A stretch of 45,294 nucleotides of DNA from an uncultured Gammaproteobacteria bacterium (GTDB lineage Bacteria > Patescibacteriota > Patescibacteriia > 2-01-FULL-39-33): contig CAYLUK010000001.1 in assembly GCA_964386875.1 (NCBI GenBank), positions 1 through 45,294 on the forward strand. Reading direction: 5' to 3'. Under the pieces are notes generated by a model. It saw only the letters and a program-made list of their open reading frames with translations, did not search any database and had not been told where the DNA came from. A program made the translations under genes and the position numbers. Each line of letters starts with the position of its first letter. The stretch's first letter is position 1. Shown piece after piece: positions 23,871-36,210 of this stretch.

Positions 23871-25772
23871 ATGACTAACAACGGAAAACAACCAACTGAC
23901 ATCCGGGAGATAAAACCGGAACAAACCAAAATCATCGAGGCTAACGATCAGTCAGCAGTTATAATTGAACCCCAAAAATTAGATGTCAGAAAGGGTGGCA
24001 ATATTATTATTGGCACCTTAAATATCTTTGCCACGCCGGTCAAAAACCGCTGGCAAAAACATTATCATCCCAAAAACAAAAACTGGCATATTCACCTGAT
24101 TATGGATGCGATTTTAGCCATCATTATTTTAGGACTGATTACCGTTAATATTTATATTTTGAGCTATGGTGAATTTGGTCCGACCAGTAAAGTGGAAATT
24201 ACCATTACAACTAATAGTGAACTGATAATCAGTGGACAAAAAACCAGTTTTGTGATTGATTATAAAAACGGCTCCAAAACCAAACTGACTGATGCCAGCT
24301 TAACTGTTAATCTGCCGGAACACTTCATTATCAATGAAGTATCGCTCCAGACAATATTTACCAACCACAGTAATACATTTTCTCTTGGTGATTTAAATAG
24401 CGGCAGTAATGGCGAAATTACAATTACCGGTGTTGTCCTCGGCCAAACAGATCAAGCCCAAAACATTGACGCATCATTAAGCTTCAAACTTGAAAACTCA
24501 AACCGGAGACAAAGCAAACCAACCAGCTACCAATATGTTATAGCCGGATCAAATCTATCCTTGGCAATAGAAATGCCAAGCCAAGTGTCAAATGGCCAAA
24601 CATTTAATGGTCAAATCAAATACCAAAATAATTCATCAATTGATATTGCCAAACTAATTATCAATTACAGCGCCAACGGCAATAATTTTCAACTGACTGA
24701 TTCATCGCAAATTATCAAAGATAACTCCTGGACAATTATTTACCTTAAAGCCGGCACTGACGGCCAAATTAATTTTTCCGGTAAATTTATCAACTCGCCG
24801 GATGAAAGCGACGCGTCAATAGAATATATGATGGCGATTGGCCTGGGCAATAATGAATTAATCCAACAAAAAATCACCAAAGAAATAACTATCGCCCACT
24901 CAAAATTTAATTTGGAAATTACCGGCCAAAACAACAATATTGATTCCGATAAAGACAGTCAATATAATATCAGCTATCTTAATCAAGAAAATTTTACTCT
25001 GCAAAATGTCACTATCTCGGCCAAATTTGATTCTAATTTGGTTGACAACAATATAATCACTTGGACCAAAGCCGACTTGCCGGAATTGGCCAATATCGCG
25101 CCGGGACAAACCGGAGCAATTTCTTTTCCCATTAAAATCAAATCCACTATCAGTCAACTGACCGAAACTGACAAAAACTTTACGCTCCAAGCCGTGGCCG
25201 AAGCCACCTACCAAACCGCTGATGGCACCAATAATAAATTTTACAGTTTTTCCGACCGGCTAATTCAAAAACTAAATACCGACCTCAATCTCAAAGCCTT
25301 TGGCCGGTATTATACCCAAGAAGGCGACCAGCTTGGCATTGGACCAACACCGCCGATAGTCGGGCAAGTCACTAAATATTGGATATTTTTTAATCTGGAA
25401 AATAAATATAATGATGTTAGTGACGTTATGGTGTCGGCTCGGTTGCCTGAAAATATCTCCTTCACCGGCAAAACCAGCACCACCGAAGATCAACCACCAA
25501 TATTTAACGCCAACAACCGACAAATAAGCTGGCAGATAAATACTGTGACAGCGCCATCTGAATTTTTCTCCAGTATTGGGGCGACATTTGAAATAGAGCT
25601 TATTCCGCAAAATACCGACATTGGCAAAACTGTTGATTTAATAACAAACATTTCAATCACTGGCAATGATGTGTTTACTGGCTACAAAATAATTAAAACT
25701 GTGGATAATATCACGACTAATTTGACCAACGACACCAAGGAAAATAGTGGAGGTGTTGTTCAAGGACAATAA
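23871..25772 (+). CDS. Large membrane-anchored surface protein with repeated beta-sandwich (DUF11/CARDB-like) modules
   Basis: Roughly 75-aa cytoplasmic N-terminus, one TM (IHLIMDAILAIIILGLITVNIYIL), then about 530 aa rich in N/T/S/I with a periodic beta-strand pattern. Confidence 0.55.
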   Translation: MTNNGKQPTDIREIKPEQTKIIEANDQSAVIIEPQKLDVRKGGNIIIGTLNIFATPVKNRWQKHYHPKNKNWHIHLIMDAILAIIILGLITVNIYILSYGEFGPTSKVEITITTNSELIISGQKTSFVIDYKNGSKTKLTDASLTVNLPEHFIINEVSLQTIFTNHSNTFSLGDLNSGSNGEITITGVVLGQTDQAQNIDASLSFKLENSNRRQSKPTSYQYVIAGSNLSLAIEMPSQVSNGQTFNGQIKYQNNSSIDIAKLIINYSANGNNFQLTDSSQIIKDNSWTIIYLKAGTDGQINFSGKFINSPDESDASIEYMMAIGLGNNELIQQKITKEITIAHSKFNLEITGQNNNIDSDKDSQYNISYLNQENFTLQNVTISAKFDSNLVDNNIITWTKADLPELANIAPGQTGAISFPIKIKSTISQLTETDKNFTLQAVAEATYQTADGTNNKFYSFSDRLIQKLNTDLNLKAFGRYYTQEGDQLGIGPTPPIVGQVTKYWIFFNLENKYNDVSDVMVSARLPENISFTGKTSTTEDQPPIFNANNRQISWQINTVTAPSEFFSSIGATFEIELIPQNTDIGKTVDLITNISITGNDVFTGYKIIKTVDNITTNLTNDTKENSGGVVQGQ

Positions 25773-25845: not shown

Positions 25846-25922
25846 ATTAAAAAATATCTAAATTTATACAAATATACCAAAAAATAAAAATACCAATCAC
25901 TGATTACTTTTTAAGGGCTGTC

Positions 25923-25977
25923 TAGTTAACATTAGTCACCCTTATCTTATCAAAAAGTAACCCTTTAATGTTAACTA
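25923..25977. repeat. Perfect 12-bp inverted repeat, its right arm ending 9 nt upstream of the P1 -35 hexamer
   Basis: TAGTTAACATTA (25923-25934) and TAATGTTAACTA (25966-25977), 31-nt spacer. Confidence 0.85.
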
Positions 25978-25986
25978 TACAATGGC

Positions 25987-26015: not shown

Positions 26016-26199
26016 ATTCCATTAAGCAGGTTTTTAACCTTGCTTATAAATTAAGGAGAAATTGAACCTTGAAAACAATCCAGTCAGAAAATGACTGGTG
26101 AAAATATATATAAGGGAAGAGAGGTAACAAAAACCAAACAACAACAGGGACAAAGGGTTCCCTAAAACTGGCTAAAAACCAGCAGAAAAGGAGACAAGA

Positions 26200-27639
26200 A
26201 TGAATAAGTATGGATTGTTGATTGGAATGTGTGTATTAGTAGCGGGTCTAACCGGCTGTCCCGAAGGGACGCCGGTGCCGTCGGCAACATTTGAAATCGT
26301 TGACGGCGACTTGTGGCTGAATGTGTATGTCGGCCACACCCCGCTCCAGCGGGTGTTCTATGGCGTGCCATGGGACTTCCGCGAAAAGCGCGAGGAGTTT
26401 CGCCTCGGCCCGATTATGTGGTACGATGATGATGAAATTCCCGGTTTTGTGAACACCGAACCGCTTAGACGCGGTGACACGATGAGCTTCAACCTCGGCG
26501 CGACTACTCCTGACCGGGTTGAGTCACTTCGAGTGACATTGTGTGGAACGTTTAACCGATTGCTTTACGACGATGTATTTCCCAACTGGGGAATCTTGTC
26601 TGATTACCGGGCTCAAAGCTACTTTGAGATTCCGGGCGTCGGTATTTTCAGCTGGGCCAAGATTGGAGAATGGTCGGCCAGCTACAACGGCGTCGCCCTA
26701 GGCGAAGCAGTTGATGCCAGTGGCAATGGACTCGGCTACTGGCAGATTGATCTGCCTCAAGCGCCACCTCCGCCCCAAACCTTTACCTTGACGACCGGCG
26801 TGGTTGGACAGGGCACGGCAACAGGTGGTGGCGTGTATCCAGCCGGAACCAATGTTGTCATCACAGCGAATCCGGCGATTGATTGGCATTTCGTGCGCTG
26901 GCAAGGCGATATTGTGGGCACGGACAATCCGGCGACCGTCACTATGAACAGTAATGTTCTGGCCACGGCCGTATTTGCCCAAGATACGCCACCTCCACCC
27001 GATAACTACACCTTGACGACTAATGTGGTTGGACAAGGCAGTGTCACCGGCGCCGGCGTTTACAACAGCGGAGCTATCGCAACGCTCACAGCGAATCCGG
27101 CGATTGGTTGGCGTTTTGCCGGCTGGACTGGCGATCTAGCTGGATTGCAAAATCCGGCCAATGTCACAATGAACACCAACAAGGGTGTCACGGCGACGTT
27201 TGAACAGATCCCGGAGCCACACACAGACGCGATGGTTGTGTTCACTACGGCTGACAGTGATTCGGTCCAGATGACAATTCTTCCCGGTCAAGAAGACCTG
27301 GGGGGCATCATCTCGCCGGCATCAAACTTGCCGAGTGGAGCAACTTTCGCGGATGTAGCGAGAGTTGGTATCCAATGGATGAGTGTTGGCCACTATCCGT
27401 ACTTCATTCAAGAGGACTATGCCGCGACGATGACAGCATCGGGCTCGCAAATCAAAGCGTTTGGTGCCGACGGCTTTATCCTAAGTAGCCGGCCAAATGA
27501 CTTCAAATGCGTGCCCTATGTGATGGTGACAGGCGATGCCAATACTCGCTACTATGTCAACACCTCAATGGTGCCTGGCAAGTGGGATGGCGTCGCCTTG
27601 ACCCGTCTAATTGACGGGCACAGCTACGACATGAACTAA
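26200..27639 (+). CDS. Lipoprotein with two InlB-B-type (Listeria-Bacteroides) repeats flanked by unknown domains
   Basis: Lipobox LTG|C (residues 17-20). Repeats at about residues 193-335 (TFTLTTGVVGQGTATGGGVY...DWHFVRWQGD...ATAVF; YTLTTNVVGQGSVTGAGVY...GWRFAGWTGD...TATF). AAGGAGA SD. GC-rich after codon ~18. Confidence 0.8.
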   Translation: MNKYGLLIGMCVLVAGLTGCPEGTPVPSATFEIVDGDLWLNVYVGHTPLQRVFYGVPWDFREKREEFRLGPIMWYDDDEIPGFVNTEPLRRGDTMSFNLGATTPDRVESLRVTLCGTFNRLLYDDVFPNWGILSDYRAQSYFEIPGVGIFSWAKIGEWSASYNGVALGEAVDASGNGLGYWQIDLPQAPPPPQTFTLTTGVVGQGTATGGGVYPAGTNVVITANPAIDWHFVRWQGDIVGTDNPATVTMNSNVLATAVFAQDTPPPPDNYTLTTNVVGQGSVTGAGVYNSGAIATLTANPAIGWRFAGWTGDLAGLQNPANVTMNTNKGVTATFEQIPEPHTDAMVVFTTADSDSVQMTILPGQEDLGGIISPASNLPSGATFADVARVGIQWMSVGHYPYFIQEDYAATMTASGSQIKAFGADGFILSSRPNDFKCVPYVMVTGDANTRYYVNTSMVPGKWDGVALTRLIDGHSYDMN

Positions 27640-27710
27640 GTCGGATCGGGGCAGTCAGTAATTGCGCTGACTGCTCCGCCTCCCTTACCTCAACCCAGAA
27701 GGAGACAGCT

Positions 27711-27938
27711 ATGTCACCAGAAGAAGGCTTAGCGATATTGCTCTTGATAGGATTAACTTCGGTGCCGATTTTCTTGATTGGCGGCCGATTTATCCTCGCC
27801 ACGGGCGCGGCAGTTTCCACCGCTATTACCGCGACCAAGCTGGTTGCGGCCGGCACTTTGGCGACCGTCGGCAGTGTCATTCTGCCCATTGGTCAATTTC
27901 TTCAGGATTTTTTTACTTATGTAAAATATCCCCACTAA
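27711..27938 (+). CDS. Small hydrophobic Gly/Ala/Thr-rich membrane ORF (75 aa)
   Basis: AAGGAGACA SD 4 nt upstream. 2-3 predicted TM helices. The last ~14 codons run from GC-rich into AT-rich DNA. Confidence 0.5.
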   Translation: MSPEEGLAILLLIGLTSVPIFLIGGRFILATGAAVSTAITATKLVAAGTLATVGSVILPIGQFLQDFFTYVKYPH

Positions 27939-27974: not shown

Positions 27975-28005
27975 GGACTATCAGATCGCTGGTAGTCCTT
28001 TTTTA
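27975..28005 (+). terminator. Intrinsic terminator ending the first GC-rich block
   Basis: GGACTATCAG-atcg-CTGGTAGTCC followed by TTTTTTATTT. Confidence 0.7.
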
Positions 28006-28270: not shown

Positions 28271-29443
28271 ATGGCAATGAGGAAAAGAAGTTCTTCAATT
28301 TTTTATGTAGTGGTACTGATGGTTATTTCTACATCTTTAGGCAATAGCAGTATTATTGCTGCCAAAGATGTTAAACATGAGCAATTCCCAGCAAAATTGT
28401 ATGCGAATGAGGATGTCAACCAAAGCGGATCTGTCGATGCGCTAGACATTCAGATAGTAATCAATGTCGTTCTGGGGCTAGGCTACGACGCGTGCCTGCC
28501 TGATGTTAACCGCAGTGGCGCAGTTGATGCCATTGATATCCAGATGGTGATCAATGCGGTTTTAAGACTACACATCACCTATCCCCCACCCGCCAGCGCC
28601 TACGCAAACTACAACGACGCCTCCGACGAGTTGTGGCTGACGCTTGACTTGGGCGGCGAGACTATGAGTAACGCTTTCATCGGCCTTGATGATGTCGCAG
28701 ACATTACCGAGGTTGGAGTAGCGTCGTGGCTGCCGGAGAAGCAGGCTTGGGATGTCTATTCCACTGCTTCACTCTGGCCTGATGGCTGGCCCGTGGATGT
28801 CCAAGTGGCAAGTTTTCAACCGCCGATCGTGATTCTCAATATTATTGCAATCGGTCCGGTGACTCTTAATCACCCCGACGGCATCTACTGGGGCAACTTG
28901 GACTGGTGGGCATTTTCCTCTAACAAGGAAGTACTGCCAAGGAATCCGGGCGAACCGCAGAAGATTGATTTGGGAGTTGTCTTTGAGCCCGCCAGCGCCT
29001 ACGCAAACTACAACGACGCCTCCGGCGAGTTGTGGCTGACGCTTGACTTGGGCGGCGAGACAGTCCAAAACGCTTTCATCGGCCTTGATGATGTCGCAGA
29101 CATTACCGAGGTTGGAGTAGCGTCGTGGCTGCCGGAGAAGCAGGCTTGGGATGTCTATTCCACTGCTTCACTCTGGCCTGATGGCTGGCCCGTGGATGTC
29201 CAAGTGGCAAGTTTTCAACCGCCGATCGTGATTCTCAATATTATTGCAATCGGTCCGGTGACTCTTAATCACCCCGACGGCATCTACTGGGGCAACTTGG
29301 ACTGGTGGGCATTTTCCTCTAACAAGGAAGTACTGCCAAGGAGTCCCGGTGAGCCCCAGAAAATTAATTTGGGGTTTAACGCTTATCATCTCACCATTGA
29401 AATTATCGGCAATGGCTCAGTGCAAACTAGAGAACTGCCGTAA
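28271..29443 (+). CDS. Secreted protein: signal peptide, two dockerin-type Ca-binding repeats, and a tandemly duplicated 133-aa domain
   Basis: Signal MAMRKRSSSIFYVVVLMVISTSLG. Dockerin repeats DVNQSGSVDALDIQIVINVVLG and DVNRSGAVDAIDIQMVINAVL. Two copies of PASAYANYNDAS.ELWLTLDLGGE... AAGGAGACAA SD. Confidence 0.8.
   Translation: MAMRKRSSSIFYVVVLMVISTSLGNSSIIAAKDVKHEQFPAKLYANEDVNQSGSVDALDIQIVINVVLGLGYDACLPDVNRSGAVDAIDIQMVINAVLRLHITYPPPASAYANYNDASDELWLTLDLGGETMSNAFIGLDDVADITEVGVASWLPEKQAWDVYSTASLWPDGWPVDVQVASFQPPIVILNIIAIGPVTLNHPDGIYWGNLDWWAFSSNKEVLPRNPGEPQKIDLGVVFEPASAYANYNDASGELWLTLDLGGETVQNAFIGLDDVADITEVGVASWLPEKQAWDVYSTASLWPDGWPVDVQVASFQPPIVILNIIAIGPVTLNHPDGIYWGNLDWWAFSSNKEVLPRSPGEPQKINLGFNAYHLTIEIIGNGSVQTRELP
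28589..29386 (+). repeat. In-frame 399-bp tandem duplication (2 copies) inside the dockerin protein gene
   Basis: Copy 1 at 28589-28987, copy 2 at 28988-29386. 274 nt (28670-28943 vs 29069-29342) are identical by hand alignment. Confidence 0.95.
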
Positions 29444-29537
29444 TTTCGCCAAGCAAAAATACTCGGAGTTAGACAGTATGTTTGGCTCCGAGCTAAACTA
29501 CAACAACAGCAAAAAACCAACAAAAAGGAGAAGCAGA

Positions 29538-30734
29538 ATGAACAAGAGCTTGATGATGGTGATTTTGATGGCGCTGGTGTCGGCAATTGCCAGTGCCCAA
29601 GGAACGGTCATTGCAACCGAACGCTACTATGGAGAAGGCGTGGTCGTCAAAGTGGAGGCCGTGCCTGATGCCGGCTGGGTGTTTAGCCACTGGGAAGGCG
29701 CTCTGACTGGCTCAATCAACCCGACGACCATTACCATGAACGCTGATCAAACGGTCCGGGCCGTGTTTATTGAAGAACCGGCTACCACCTTAACAATCAA
29801 TCTTAATGGATATGGCTCGGTAACTCCTAATCCGACCGGTCCTGACTATGTCACCAACACCTTGGTGACGCTCACAGCCACGGCCGATCCTGGCTGGCGC
29901 TTTGACCACTGGGAAGGCGATCTGACCGGCTCAATCAACCCGACGACCATCACTATGGACACGGACAAGACTGTCACGGCCGTATTTGTGGAAATTCCGA
30001 TTGTCAGCTTGACGCTCAACACTATGGGCAGTGGATCTGTCAATCCCAATCCAGCCGGCCCCGATTACTATCAAGGCACTGTCGTGACGGTCACAGCCAC
30101 GGCTGGTATAGGCTGGGCGTTTGACCACTGGGAAGGAGATTTGACTGGGTCAACAAATCCGACGACCGTCGCCATGGACACAAGCAAAACGGCCACGGCT
30201 GTATTTGTGGAAATTCCGGTCAATACTCCGGAGTTTCGCCTGCTAAACAATGGTGGCGCCTTGGATGCCAGTTTCAACGCCAACGGCGTGCCAATCAACA
30301 CTCTCCTCAATGGCGGACTGGCTGCCAATGAAGTAGTGGATCGTCTGGCTATGTGTTTTATGTGGCCAAGCGATGTTCCAAACAATCTGGCCATTGAGCA
30401 TGAACCTCTGCCTGGAGGATTGCCAGCTAACGCTTTCTCGGCAACGGTGAATTTCAACGGCACCAACTGCCTTGATACAAACTATACTGGCGACCGAGAT
30501 TTTCCTTTCGGTGAAGAAGATTCATATTTAGTGTATGGAGTTGTCCGTATCACTAATACGGCCACTGGCAACACTAGGTTTGACTCCATGAACACCGACC
30601 TGATCAACCTCACTTTTGACGGGGTGAGCCAAAATCGGGTTGGCACCAATTTCTTGCTAGTGTTGCGTACCACCTTTGCCCTCACCATTGAGGTAGAAGG
30701 GTCAGGCACAGTCAACACAAATATTGTTCCTTAA
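29538..30734 (+). CDS. Secreted protein with three InlB-B-type repeats and an unknown C-terminal domain
   Basis: Start moved to ATG 29538 (AAGGAGAAG SD; signal MNKSLMMVILMALVSAIASA|QG). Repeats contain GWVFSHWEGALTG, GWRFDHWEGDLTG, GWAFDHWEGDLTG. The track's 29349 start overlaps the upstream gene. Confidence 0.8.
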   Translation: MNKSLMMVILMALVSAIASAQGTVIATERYYGEGVVVKVEAVPDAGWVFSHWEGALTGSINPTTITMNADQTVRAVFIEEPATTLTINLNGYGSVTPNPTGPDYVTNTLVTLTATADPGWRFDHWEGDLTGSINPTTITMDTDKTVTAVFVEIPIVSLTLNTMGSGSVNPNPAGPDYYQGTVVTVTATAGIGWAFDHWEGDLTGSTNPTTVAMDTSKTATAVFVEIPVNTPEFRLLNNGGALDASFNANGVPINTLLNGGLAANEVVDRLAMCFMWPSDVPNNLAIEHEPLPGGLPANAFSATVNFNGTNCLDTNYTGDRDFPFGEEDSYLVYGVVRITNTATGNTRFDSMNTDLINLTFDGVSQNRVGTNFLLVLRTTFALTIEVEGSGTVNTNIVP

Positions 30735-30748
30735 CTCGAGTTTCAATG

Positions 30749-30782
30749 GGCGACAGATAACACATCTGCCGCCTCTTTTTTT
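30749..30782 (+). terminator. Intrinsic terminator ending the second GC-rich block
   Basis: GGCGACAGAT-aacac-ATCTGCCGCC (one mismatch) followed by TCTTTTTTT. Confidence 0.7.
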
Positions 30783-30813
30783 ACCCGATGGAATAAAAAT
30801 TATTCCATCGGGT
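30783..30813. repeat. Perfect 13-bp palindromic hairpin immediately after the terminator T-run
   Basis: ACCCGATGGAATA-aaaat-TATTCCATCGGGT. Confidence 0.9.
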
Positions 30814-30919
30814 GAACCCTTAAATCTATTAATATATTTACCTAAATTTGACTAAACATATAAAAATATCCTCAAAATATTACTCATTACCCATTACTTT
30901 TTCTTTACTTTTTTCTGGC

Positions 30920-30948
30920 TTGACAATTTTTTTCAGATATGGTAAGAT
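30920..30948 (+). promoter_or_regulatory. Promoter P3 (glycosyltransferase gene)
   Basis: GGCTTGACA-17 nt (ending TGG)-TAAGAT, 19 nt upstream of ATG 30968. Confidence 0.6.
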
Positions 30949-30967: not shown

Positions 30968-32119
30968 ATGAAAATAGCGTTTATCGGACAAAAAGGCATC
31001 CCAACCAAGCAGGGCGGGATCGAAAAACACGTTCAAGAGCTTAGTACCAGACTGGCTAAAGCTGATTTTGACGTGACTGTATATTCTAGGCCTTATTATA
31101 CTGGTAGCCACCGAACAAAATACGGCCAAATTAAAATTGTTAATTTGCCATCTTTAAAAACTAAAAATTTTGATGCCATCAGTCACACCTTTTTGGCCAG
31201 TATTCATGCTATTTTCCAAAACTACGACATTATCCATTATCATGGCGTCGGCCCATCATTAATGTCATGGATTCCCAGACTATTCAATCCTTGTGCCAAA
31301 GTAATCGCCACTTTTCATTGTGTTGATCGAAAACATCAAAAGTGGGGACTAATCGCCAGAACTATGCTCGGACTTGGCGAATGGGCCACTTGCCGTTTTC
31401 CCCATGAGACAATCGTCGTATCTGAAACTTTGAAAAAGTATTGTGAATATAGATTTGATCGACAAACCACCTACATCCCCAATGGTGTTCAAATCAATCA
31501 CAGCAAACAAAAAAGTGATATTATTGCTAACTATGGTCTAAAGCAAGACCGGTATTTACTGATAGTTTCTCGACTGGTCAAACATAAAGGAATTCACACT
31601 TTAATTGAAGCGTATCAAAAAACCAAGACCAACCAGAAACTGGTAATCGTTGGTACTGGTTCAAATACCAATAATTATATTGACTACTTGAAAGAACTGG
31701 CTCAAGGCAATGAAAATATTATTTTTACCGGCCAGAAAAGTGGCAATGATCTAGAAACCCTATTTCGTGGCGCCTATGCCTTTGTCCAGCCATCAGAAGC
31801 GGAAGGACTGTCAATCGCCTTACTTGAAGCGATTGCTTATGGCCTGCCAGTGATAATCAGCAACATTGAAGAGAATATTGAAGCGGCTAATGGCTTTGGC
31901 ATTGTATTTGAAAATCGTAACATTAATGACTTAAGTAATAAAATTACTTGGGTAATTAAAAATAAAGCCCTAATTAAGAAGCAAGCACGAGTAGCAAAAA
32001 ATAAAATTAACCAAAAATATAATTGGACTGATATTGCCAGCCAAACCAGCGAACTATACCAAAACATTGTTGCAGAAAACAGAAACAGAAAATATCTGCC
32101 CAAGATTATTTTGAAATAA
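30968..32119 (+). CDS. GT4-family glycosyltransferase
   Basis: Start moved to ATG 30968 (MKIAFIGQKGIPTKQGGIEKHV); the track's upstream extension covers the promoter. E-x7-E motif EAEGLSIALLEAIAYGLPVI. Host-like AT-rich composition. Confidence 0.85.
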   Translation: MKIAFIGQKGIPTKQGGIEKHVQELSTRLAKADFDVTVYSRPYYTGSHRTKYGQIKIVNLPSLKTKNFDAISHTFLASIHAIFQNYDIIHYHGVGPSLMSWIPRLFNPCAKVIATFHCVDRKHQKWGLIARTMLGLGEWATCRFPHETIVVSETLKKYCEYRFDRQTTYIPNGVQINHSKQKSDIIANYGLKQDRYLLIVSRLVKHKGIHTLIEAYQKTKTNQKLVIVGTGSNTNNYIDYLKELAQGNENIIFTGQKSGNDLETLFRGAYAFVQPSEAEGLSIALLEAIAYGLPVIISNIEENIEAANGFGIVFENRNINDLSNKITWVIKNKALIKKQARVAKNKINQKYNWTDIASQTSELYQNIVAENRNRKYLPKIILK

Positions 32120-35336: not shown

Positions 35337-35801
35337 ATGACCAACACCAAACTTCAAATAAATAAAATAACCAAGGGCTTTACCTTGGTCGAGCTTTTGA
35401 CTATCATCGCAATTATTGGAATAGTATCAGCCATTAGTATTCCAATGTATCGCCAGCTTCGCCCCAATCTAGATTTGAACGCCGTTGCTCGTGACATCAC
35501 CTCTGATCTGCGTTATGCTCAACAGCTGGCTGTCACCGAACAAGATATTCATTCGGTTAATTTTGATATTCTCGCTAATAGCTACACCATCATCAATGAA
35601 GATAGCGCCATAACTGTAAAGACAGTTAGTATTAATCCACAAATTGTAATTTCCACTATCAACGACTTAACTGGTAATTCTGTCAGCTTCAACGCCACTG
35701 GTGGCGCCAGTGAATCCGGTATTATTACACTCACTAATATTGATAATGTCACCACCACCATCGAAATCAAACCATCCGGCTATGTCAAAATCCAAAACTA
35801 A
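35337..35801 (+). CDS. Prepilin-type protein, FimT/GspH-like minor pilin
   Basis: Class III signal KG|FTLVELLTIIAIIGIV with Glu+5. DITSDLRYAQQLAV resembles the GspH domain. Confidence 0.75.
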   Translation: MTNTKLQINKITKGFTLVELLTIIAIIGIVSAISIPMYRQLRPNLDLNAVARDITSDLRYAQQLAVTEQDIHSVNFDILANSYTIINEDSAITVKTVSINPQIVISTINDLTGNSVSFNATGGASESGIITLTNIDNVTTTIEIKPSGYVKIQN

Positions 35802-36210
35802 CAACCAGGGCATCACAATTATTGAGGTGCTAGTGACAATAACTGTCGTGGTCGTCGGACTAATGGCAATTGTCCAAACATTTCCAGTTGCTTTTAAATT
35901 AAGCCGAACATCAGAACAAGCCACCATCGCCACCAACTTAGCTCAAGCCAAAATTGAAGAGATGTTTTATCTTGACTATGACAACATTCCAATTGGCGTG
36001 GCCGAGGCTAGACACAGACTATCAAGCAATCCAGACAACCAATTTTATCAATATCAGAGAGAAACTTCTGTTGAATATGTCGACGGCGATCTCAATCCAT
36101 CAATGTCTGAAACTGGAATAAAAAAAGTGACCGTGACAACATATTGGAATAGTGTCATATTTTCGATGGAAAAAAGTATTTCCATTATAATTTTAATTAG
36201 TGAAAAGTAA
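35782..36210 (+). CDS. Prepilin-type minor pilin (PilV/GspI-like)
   Basis: Start moved to ATG 35782 (MSKSKTNNQG|ITIIEVLVTITVVV), 20-nt overlap with the upstream gene. Confidence 0.7.
   Translation: MSKSKTNNQGITIIEVLVTITVVVVGLMAIVQTFPVAFKLSRTSEQATIATNLAQAKIEEMFYLDYDNIPIGVAEARHRLSSNPDNQFYQYQRETSVEYVDGDLNPSMSETGIKKVTVTTYWNSVIFSMEKSISIIILISEK

Follow-up and report, generated by a model that had tools for sequence, protein, structure and literature searches.

A composition step inside the secreted-protein genes of a conserved, variable slot in an ultra-small bacterium: head and body, or native and foreign?

Three predicted secreted-protein genes in contig CAYLUK010000001.1 (assembly GCA_964386875.1) raise the question of whether a step in base composition that falls inside genes marks where native and foreign DNA were joined. 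The whole stretch analysed, here called the window, is 45,294 nt long and forms contig C1 of a 929-kb genome from groundwater sources (39.4% G+C (GC), 90 contigs, 90% complete), whose gene content includes peptidoglycan, SecA, glycan and type IV pilus genes. GC per kb is 0.45-0.52 at 26.2-30.8 kb and 0.32-0.43 across the remaining window. The open reading frames (ORFs) of this island have a GC of 0.51-0.54, compared with 0.39 for the genome, and the third-position GC (GC3) of ORF1, ORF2 and ORF3 is 0.56-0.59, about 3 standard deviations above the genome mean of 0.40 (standard deviation 0.065; 498 long ORFs). A sequence-only reading of this DNA had proposed that foreign passenger domains were recombined behind pre-existing native modules of promoter, leader and signal peptide. 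We find instead that the island is a hypervariable surface-protein slot conserved across the family, and we lean towards the view that the boundary is intrinsic, separating the head from the body of native, persistently GC-rich and over-folded genes.

We compared the island with 33 other genomes of the same family, which are small (0.6-1.4 Mb) and resemble those of the candidate phyla radiation (CPR), and with 27 genomes of the class that belong to other families. To judge from its size, gene content and groundwater sources, the genome studied here is probably CPR- or Patescibacteria-like too. Relatives of ORF1 occurred in 17 of the 33 same-family genomes and in none of the 27 others. In at least 11 genomes they sit between a homolog (or a shorter version) of the 633-amino acid (aa) gene that flanks the island on the left and the GT4/pilB genes that flank it on the right. 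Surface-glycan genes lie on one side of the slot and the type IV pilus operon on the other, where the GT4 gene precedes pilB, pilC and pilin genes. The slot holds from 0 (genome G019) to 5 (G003) secreted-protein genes. In G019, the only genome with an empty slot among those inspected (L043, G019:C15, 4145-4264), a 618-aa gene is followed by GT4 after 118 nt. Replacement-type flexible islands, such as those for O-antigen or capsule, likewise have a fixed position, variable content (0 to 5 genes here), atypical composition and a surface function. Unlike them, this slot carries a related family of secreted proteins and not sugar-pathway genes, and its atypical GC is high, persistent and present also in vertically inherited parts.

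The occupants of the slot are kin. ORF1-type proteins have a signal peptide with a G-C-P lipobox, a variable N-domain, InlB B-repeats and a C-terminal domain. The B-repeat family Flg_new_2 (PF18998) scored 95.6 bits in ORF1 (2 units) and 137.1 bits in ORF3 (3 units) against a Pfam cut-off of 23.6. Residues 1-467 of ORF1 align with the slot protein of G016, signal peptide included; its C-domain is common to G010 (43%), G006 and G029, and its N-domain is related only to G016 and to G032, which has another type of C-domain. A lipobox with Gly-Cys and Pro at +2 was present in 14/14 slot lipoproteins (window 26254-26262 plus 13 genes in L029-L042). The same G-C-P lipobox was also seen in a GC-rich lipoprotein elsewhere in the genome (C5:26819-27595). 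Protein identity among the relatives is 30-45%, and their DNA is unalignable outside the genus g13. When ORF1 was searched against 5.8 billion proteins, nothing closer was found outside the family, and the best non-self matches covered B-repeats only; these domains have relatives 40-47% identical in Chloroflexi-type and other bacteria. A donor scan of 185,579 species genomes returned a single weak B-repeat match. ORF2 had no homolog other than itself among the 5.8 billion proteins. Because relatives with the full architecture occupy the same slot, and because the G-C-P lipobox is universal among them, the passengers are not foreign. The proposal of foreign domains is further contradicted by the restriction of out-of-family matches to B-repeats and by GC elevation in vertically inherited parts, described below.

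Apart from its atypical composition, the island lacks what a recent import would show. The site is not vacant in relatives, since the same slot occurs in at least 11 genomes; the closest homologs are not distant, as the N- and C-domains match the family only and ORF2 has no homolog; and mobility genes are missing. A Pfam scan of the ORFs of the 45-kb window found no integrase, transposase or recombinase, and there are no flanking direct repeats. No tRNA turned up in or beside the island, although no dedicated tRNA scan was made. At least six other metagenomes have yielded assemblies of the same locus, 99.5-100% identical, which rules out an assembly chimera. Groundwater samples with this population include JGI 3300009031, ERZ5996431 and runs of PRJNA292723. 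Over up to 21 kb, all differences among the six assemblies were confined to the 399-nt repeat of ORF2 (28589-29386), and consisted of copy number (1 versus 2, giving 241/257 versus 390 aa) and patchy swaps between copies. Since the assemblies differ only within this repeat, they carry no information on the junctions.

The step itself differs from gene to gene. ORF1 has 20 G/C in its first 54 nt (26200-26253, 0.37), exactly as had been counted by hand, and 34/54 (0.63) in the next 54 nt; in the mature part, 0/1330 windows of 54 nt were as AT-rich as the first. Edges were placed by a two-state nucleotide changepoint model, with ranges giving 2-lnL support (lnL, log likelihood). The left edge of the GC-rich sequence in ORF1, at 26242 (26224-26252), lies ~42 nt inside the ORF, a position 6.1 lnL units better than the start codon. 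At synonymous sites (GC3s, with Met and Trp codons excluded), the contrast in ORF1 is weak (6/17 = 0.35 versus 252/436 = 0.58; Fisher p = 0.08), and a first-19-codon GC3s dip at least as large as that of ORF1 occurs in 6.7% of 610 genes of the genome. We conclude that most of the total-GC contrast in ORF1 comes from amino-acid composition. In ORF2, GC3s is 8/39 = 0.21 in codons 2-42, compared with 0.52 in the dockerin part and 0.60 in the repeats (0.57 for the overall comparison). Its signal peptide by itself shows a GC3s dip at p = 0.0006, the changepoint lies beyond codon 42 (at nt 28403, with support for 28358-28475), and a dip as large is found in only 0.5% of the genome's genes; the ORF2 dip is real and unusual. 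The signal peptide of ORF3, at 12/17 = 0.71, is GC-rich at synonymous sites if anything. At the other end of the first GC-rich block, the right edge (27895; 27873-27909) falls within ORF1b, a short ORF downstream of ORF1, 44 nt before its stop. The last 15 codons of ORF1b have a GC3s of 0.20 compared with 0.70 before them, a 3' dip of -0.5 that lies in the 0.5% genome-wide tail.

The sequence-only reading described the pattern correctly in part. The composition boundary does lie inside ORFs and not at gene borders, with both edges of block 1 in coding sequence; the signal-peptide codons of ORF2 are AT-rich, with high GC beginning further in; and the signal peptide of ORF3 is not AT-rich. Its general picture of an AT-rich head with a step inside the ORF holds for total GC. 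At synonymous sites it is weak in ORF1, strong in ORF2 and missing from ORF3.

How ordinary such a contrast is can be judged from other genes. Among native signal-peptide-like genes (n = 78), codons 2-19 have a total GC of 0.305 and the codons after them 0.418, a dip of -0.114, compared with 0.363 and 0.400 in the remaining genes of the genome. The genome-wide GC3s dip over the first 19 codons is -0.033 for 530 non-secreted genes and -0.069 for 80 signal-peptide-like genes (standard deviation 0.13). When 19 slot genes from relatives are pooled, total GC rises through 0.32, 0.42, 0.46, 0.54 and 0.62 over codons 2-25, with a plateau of 0.53, and GC3s goes from 0.47-0.52 up to 0.57-0.61. Because the pooled relatives and the native signal-peptide genes show the same rise, the jump at the lipobox is a property of the class. 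An n- and h-region built from Lys, Asn, Leu, Ile and Phe codons, followed by a linker rich in Gly, Cys and Pro, would yield such a jump.

[quoted passage not shown] With AT-richness within the first ~10-20 codons as the mark of a ramp, ORF1 fits (step at codon 14-15), ORF2 has a head of 42 codons, and ORF3 has no synonymous dip. Predicted folding of the start zone (-20..+40) is weak in all four island ORFs, at -4.7 to -10 kcal/mol compared with -15 to -18 kcal/mol for interior windows. The island therefore resembles a codon ramp with signal-peptide bias in the AT-enrichment of the first 13-15 codons of ORF1, in the predicted lack of folding at all four starts, and in a dip that is present genome-wide and stronger in signal-peptide genes. 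It departs from one in ORF2, whose dip runs for 42 codons and goes far below the norm, and in the amplification of the contrast by gene bodies that are unusually GC-rich for the genome. Mostly, then, this is an ordinary contrast between head and body, exaggerated by unusually GC-rich bodies.

Why the bodies are GC-rich is a separate matter, and the relatives indicate that the elevation is old and not recent. Nearly all relatives have raised GC in their slot genes, with a mean GC3s of 0.58 in the mature part versus 0.42 in flank genes; signal peptides of the relatives' slot genes have a GC3s of 0.51, above the host value of 0.42 (p = 0.01) and slightly below that of the mature part (p = 0.03). 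In genus g13, the C-terminal ~185 residues of the four slot proteins are orthologous (55-72% aa identity; the neighbour gene is 50-67% identical and GT4 80-83%), and these orthologous parts have a GC3s of 0.40-0.54 versus 0.25-0.42 for their hosts, an excess of 0.05-0.16. Inside the slots, long intergenic regions that bear promoters are AT-rich in all relatives (0.31-0.47) and short spacers within operons are GC-rich (0.55-0.59). In the island studied here, intergenic DNA is 0.30-0.32 GC (0.32 between the units), compared with a genome intergenic mean of 0.31, and GC3s is 0.54-0.57 in the ORFs versus 0.34-0.42 in flank genes. Amelioration of an imported block cannot explain intergenic DNA at the host level beside coding sequence of such high GC3s. 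Codon optimisation for high expression was rejected as a cause, as ribosomal-protein, EF-Tu and EF-G genes have a GC3s of only 0.27-0.39. Amino-acid composition as the sole cause of the GC-rich bodies was rejected as well, given the GC3s difference from the flanks and a non-coding spacer between ORF1 and ORF1b that has 0.59 GC over 71 nt.

Within g13, where DNA can be aligned, conservation breaks at the lipobox. In pairwise DNA comparisons (segments L031:3874-4233, L033:5365-5724(-), L035:6920-7279(-) and L036:1211-1570(-)), promoters are 71% identical, leaders 49% and signal peptides with their lipobox 65%, and the identity drops to 32% and then 28%, about random, directly after GGTTGCCC. Nothing in the congeners corresponds to the N-domains of G025 and G022, while the B-repeat and C-terminal parts are conserved; the N-domain of G022 weakly resembles proteins of G003. 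This pattern of conserved head and alternative bodies is found between species, not within one population. Judged from these alignments, the lipobox is a real evolutionary joint and the bodies are mosaic within the family. Since the head is conserved and N- and C-domains have different closest relatives, the bodies would have been exchanged within, or diversified from, the family's own pool. Two processes could have produced this: exchange by recombination, or purifying selection acting on the head together with diversifying selection on the exposed N-terminus.

Of the modular junction that had been proposed, what survives is the conservation break at the lipobox in g13 and the shuffling of domains inside the family; a foreign source and native paralogous modules do not. 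A check of the export segments against the whole genome by blastn-short, nhmmer and tblastn gave only a 15-nt match in the -35 regions of promoters P1 and P2, and neither segment of promoter, leader and signal peptide has a paralog in the 90%-complete genome, so the proposal of pre-existing native export modules is not supported. Paralogs of the ORF bodies or heads were not found in the genome, nor were repeats at the junctions.

Two known systems invite comparison. Streptococcal M protein (emm) genes encode surface antigens whose signal peptide is conserved and whose mature N-terminus is hypervariable. As in g13, conservation breaks sharply at the end of the signal peptide or lipobox and the C-terminal part is conserved. 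The island differs in that its proteins are CPR-like lipoproteins of InlB B-repeats and orphan domains, and in that GC is elevated in the variable as well as the conserved parts of the body, unlike in emm. In the vsa genes of Mycoplasma pulmonis and the vsp genes of M. bovis, site-specific recombination puts different bodies behind one head of promoter, signal peptide and lipobox. The model of the sequence-only reading would work in this way, with bodies exchanged behind a conserved lipoprotein head. Here, however, no recombinase gene turned up in the 45-kb window, silent cassettes lacking a head and a repeated junction site were not found either, and all six assemblies carry one arrangement.

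The bodies of the island genes also stand out in predicted mRNA folding. Compared with synonymous-codon shuffles, the bodies of ORF1, ORF2 and ORF3 (26290-27636, 28406-29440 and 29628-30731) gave z of -5.0, -4.9 and -4.0, or 4-5 kcal/mol extra per 120 nt, and four host genes gave z of -0.8 to -2.8. Against local dinucleotide shuffles, mean window z was -1.2 to -1.5 for the bodies and -0.2 to -0.8 for host genes. Seven GC-matched (0.51-0.54) native genes of G032, the GC-richest relative, ranged from +0.4 to -1.7, and nine slot genes of relatives (L029, L037-L040) from -0.9 to -8.4, with their flanks at -0.6 to -1.5. Stable mRNAs of abundant envelope proteins, such as those of E. coli ompA and lpp and of S-layer genes, have 5' stem-loops and long leaders. 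The island transcripts would resemble these in their consensus promoters, 5' stem-loops, leaders of 145-180 nt, strong Shine-Dalgarno (SD) sites and folded bodies. For the island transcripts, the 5' ends are placed from promoter positions.

These observations lead us to regard the boundary as probably intrinsic to the genes. Each unit begins with a host-type consensus promoter, followed by a predicted 5' stem-loop, a long A-rich leader and a strong SD site. The leader and the first 13-40 codons would together form an AT-rich, unfolded and conserved head for export and initiation. Its AT-richness would come from the Lys, Asn, Ile, Leu and Phe codons of the signal peptide, from a ribosome-loading zone that is kept unfolded, and from vertical conservation, and the GC-rich, folded body behind it would diversify through divergence and through the shuffling of domains inside the family. 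This interpretation draws on the synteny of the slot, the family-wide GC elevation, the size of the dips relative to genome norms, the predicted folding excess and the weak folding of the starts. Selection on mRNA structure or stability may keep the bodies GC-rich, and the slot proteins are likely to be abundant, adhesin-like surface proteins. Tentatively, we can go a step further, to a proposal that is possible but doubtful: the slot genes of the family would keep GC-rich bodies regardless of the composition of each genome, because their mRNAs would be selected for heavy folding, and so be long-lived, with a conserved AT-rich 'landing pad' of leader and signal-peptide codons exempt from it, and the lipobox-coding GGxTGCCC would serve as a fixed joint for the shuffling of bodies. 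Several points weigh against an intrinsic boundary. The head of ORF2, at 42 codons and a GC3s of 0.21, exceeds a normal 5' ramp in length; block 1 ends on the right within ORF1b, at a 3' boundary that an argument about the initiation zone does not cover; the start of ORF3 is unfolded without synonymous AT-richness, so AT-rich synonymous choice is not required; and the predicted folding excess could be a by-product of something else.

Cassette exchange inside the family, with a resident head and GC-rich bodies recombined in from the pool of family slot genes, is a rather unlikely account of the same step. It would put junctions at or near the ORF1 lipobox, after ORF2 codon 42 and at ~27895 in ORF1b. 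It would suit the collapse of g13 identity past the lipobox, congeners whose N-domains are unrelated and whose C-parts are alike, and the split affinities of ORF1, with an N-domain matching G016/G032 and a C-domain matching G010/G006/G029. The g13 signal peptides, at host-like GC3s (0.24-0.42) ahead of higher bodies, the two block 1 edges inside ORFs with two dips in the 0.5% tail, and the host-like DNA between the units (0.32 versus 0.31) fit as well. The g13 break is equally what purifying selection on the head and diversifying selection on the N-terminus would give, however, and the GC elevation reaches vertical C-parts and, in G016, G023, G010 and G013, the signal peptides too (0.56-0.83); nor was any repeated junction sequence, silent cassette or recombinase found. 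For ORF2 only, the 42-codon head might have been recruited from native AT-rich upstream DNA, or from the 5' end of a resident gene, by a startless GC-rich orphan body. The low GC3s over 42 codons, host-like amino-acid usage and step-like change at 28403 speak for this, as do the lack of any homolog and the recent 399-nt duplication, which, since it holds all differences among the six assemblies, marks a gene evolving in place. No source sequence was found in the genome or the relatives, and a single gene could be the tail of an overdispersed distribution (the slot gene of one relative dips by -0.25); we consider such a recruitment improbable.

That leaves foreign import, either as out-of-family passengers behind native modules or as a recent 4.6-kb block whose non-coding parts have ameliorated. 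The GC3 of the three ORFs, the 40-47% identical B-repeats in Chloroflexi-type and other bacteria and the empty slot of G019 could each be read in its favour. We hold it to be very improbable, as the closest relatives with the full architecture belong to the family and occupy the same locus, matches beyond the family cover only B-repeats, the elevation persists in vertically inherited parts, amelioration cannot restore intergenic DNA while leaving the GC3s of the ORFs untouched, and the island is without mobility genes.

The features of the locus are listed in the table. The island comprises two predicted transcription units, P1-leader-ORF1-spacer-ORF1b-terminator and P2-leader-ORF2-ORF3-hairpin.

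Table. Coordinates of predicted features of the island and its flanks in the window
Feature	Position	Strand	Description
Conserved left flank gene	23871..25772	+	633 aa, without Pfam family; host-type GC3s 0.39; homologs adjoin relatives' slot genes
Promoter P1	25987..26015	+	TTGACA-17-TAAGAT, TG extension, host consensus type
ORF1 leader (putative)	26020..26199	+	~180 nt, A-rich; SD AAGGAGA; start placed from the -10 box
Stem-loop near 5' end of ORF1 leader	26023-26046	+	z = -2.5
ORF1 signal peptide, codons 1-19 (MNKYGLLIGMCVLVAGLTG)	26200..26256	+	lipobox Cys is codon 20; GC 0.40, GC3s 6/17
ORF1	26200..27639	+	479-aa predicted lipoprotein; N-domain, 2 Flg_new_2 (InlB B-repeat) units, family-specific C-domain; GC 0.54
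GC-rich block 1	26242..27894	.	~0.55 GC; changepoints 26242 (26224-26252) and 27895 (27873-27909); both edges within ORFs
GC-rich hairpin in ORF1-ORF1b spacer	27648..27677	+	-29.2 kcal/mol, z = -3.4
ORF1b	27711..27938	+	75-aa hydrophobic orphan ORF
Intrinsic-terminator-like hairpin and T-run	27975..27998	+	closes unit 1
Promoter P2	28098..28126	+	TTGACA-17-TAAAAT, TG extension
AT-rich head of ORF2	28271..28396	+	signal peptide plus 11 codons (codons 1-42); GC 0.34, GC3s 0.21
ORF2	28271..29443	+	390-aa secreted protein; signal peptide, dockerin pair, tandem duplication of orphan domain
GC-rich block 2	28403..30791	.	ORF2 body and ORF3; changepoints 28403 (28358-28475) and 30792 (30772-30828)
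ORF2 tandem duplication	28589-29386	+	399 nt; orphan domain doubled
ORF3	29538..30734	+	398-aa secreted protein; 3 Flg_new_2 repeats
17-nt-arm hairpin	30780..30816	+	closes unit 2; 94% complementary
Promoter P3 of GT4 gene	30920-30948	+	
Conserved right flank gene, GT4 glycosyltransferase	30968..32119	+	59-66% aa identity to relatives; then pilB, pilC and pilin genes

P1 and P2 have in common the sequence AATGGCTTGACAAAA...TTTGCTAA[G/A]ATAT. The leader of ORF2 is ~145 nt long, with its 5' end placed from the promoter position at about 28131 (about 26020 for ORF1), and a stem-loop opens both leaders, near where the transcripts are predicted to begin (z of -2.5 and -3.4). Neither of these long leaders matched a known RNA or riboswitch in Rfam at E<=1. 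A 16-nt inverted repeat (25919-25934 / 25966-25981, 94% complementary, 31 nt spacing) lies a few bases 5' of the -35 element of P1 and has no equivalent at P2 or P3; it could be an operator-like site. ORF1b, hydrophobic and preceded by a good SD site, lacks a homolog in the other 33 genomes of the family and may be a young gene or no gene at all. The possibility that 27640-27895 is a pseudogene relic was set aside after blastx gave nothing.

The ORF1 lipobox is LTG-C, which fits [LVI][ASTVI][GAS]C. LspA (signal peptidase II) is encoded elsewhere in the genome (C24:10405-10797), and Lgt (PF01790) was not found in the 90%-complete assembly. ORF2 scored 49.9 bits for dockerin type I (PF00404; Pfam cut-off 22.9), and contig C2 carries another gene (35697-36074, minus strand) with several dockerin repeats. 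A 17-nt match (88-94%) links 26304-26320 with 28624-28640 and 29023-29039; it encodes G-[DE]-LWL, a motif that sits near the start of the ORF1 N-domain and of each ORF2 repeat. The ORF1 N-domain and the ORF2 repeat are marginally similar by BLASTP (E = 0.037 over 28 residues). The C-termini of ORF2 (29387-29443, ...LTIEIIGNGSVQTRELP) and ORF3 (30678-30734, ...LTIEVEGSGTVNTNIVP) both resemble the first strand of a B-repeat followed by Pro and a stop, and several slot proteins of relatives likewise terminate in LP, VP or WP. Other GC3 outliers of the genome (C2:28646-29629, C33:4744-5976, C6:19209-19889 and C5:26819-27595) are predicted secreted proteins or lipoproteins; none of the top-GC3 ORFs is a translation-machinery gene.

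Native signal peptides fused to foreign domains would have been a neat case of modular gene assembly. What the locus suggests instead is that a GC-rich patch of secreted-protein genes beside a pilus operon in ultra-small bacteria need not be foreign DNA, and that detection of horizontal transfer from composition would misclassify this slot. If the proposed selection for folded mRNAs is correct, such composition islands would be a trait of expression architecture in native genes and no mark of horizontal transfer. Attachment to host cells is a central question of CPR biology, and the slot proteins, with B-repeats and dockerin beside type IV pili, are plausible candidates for it.

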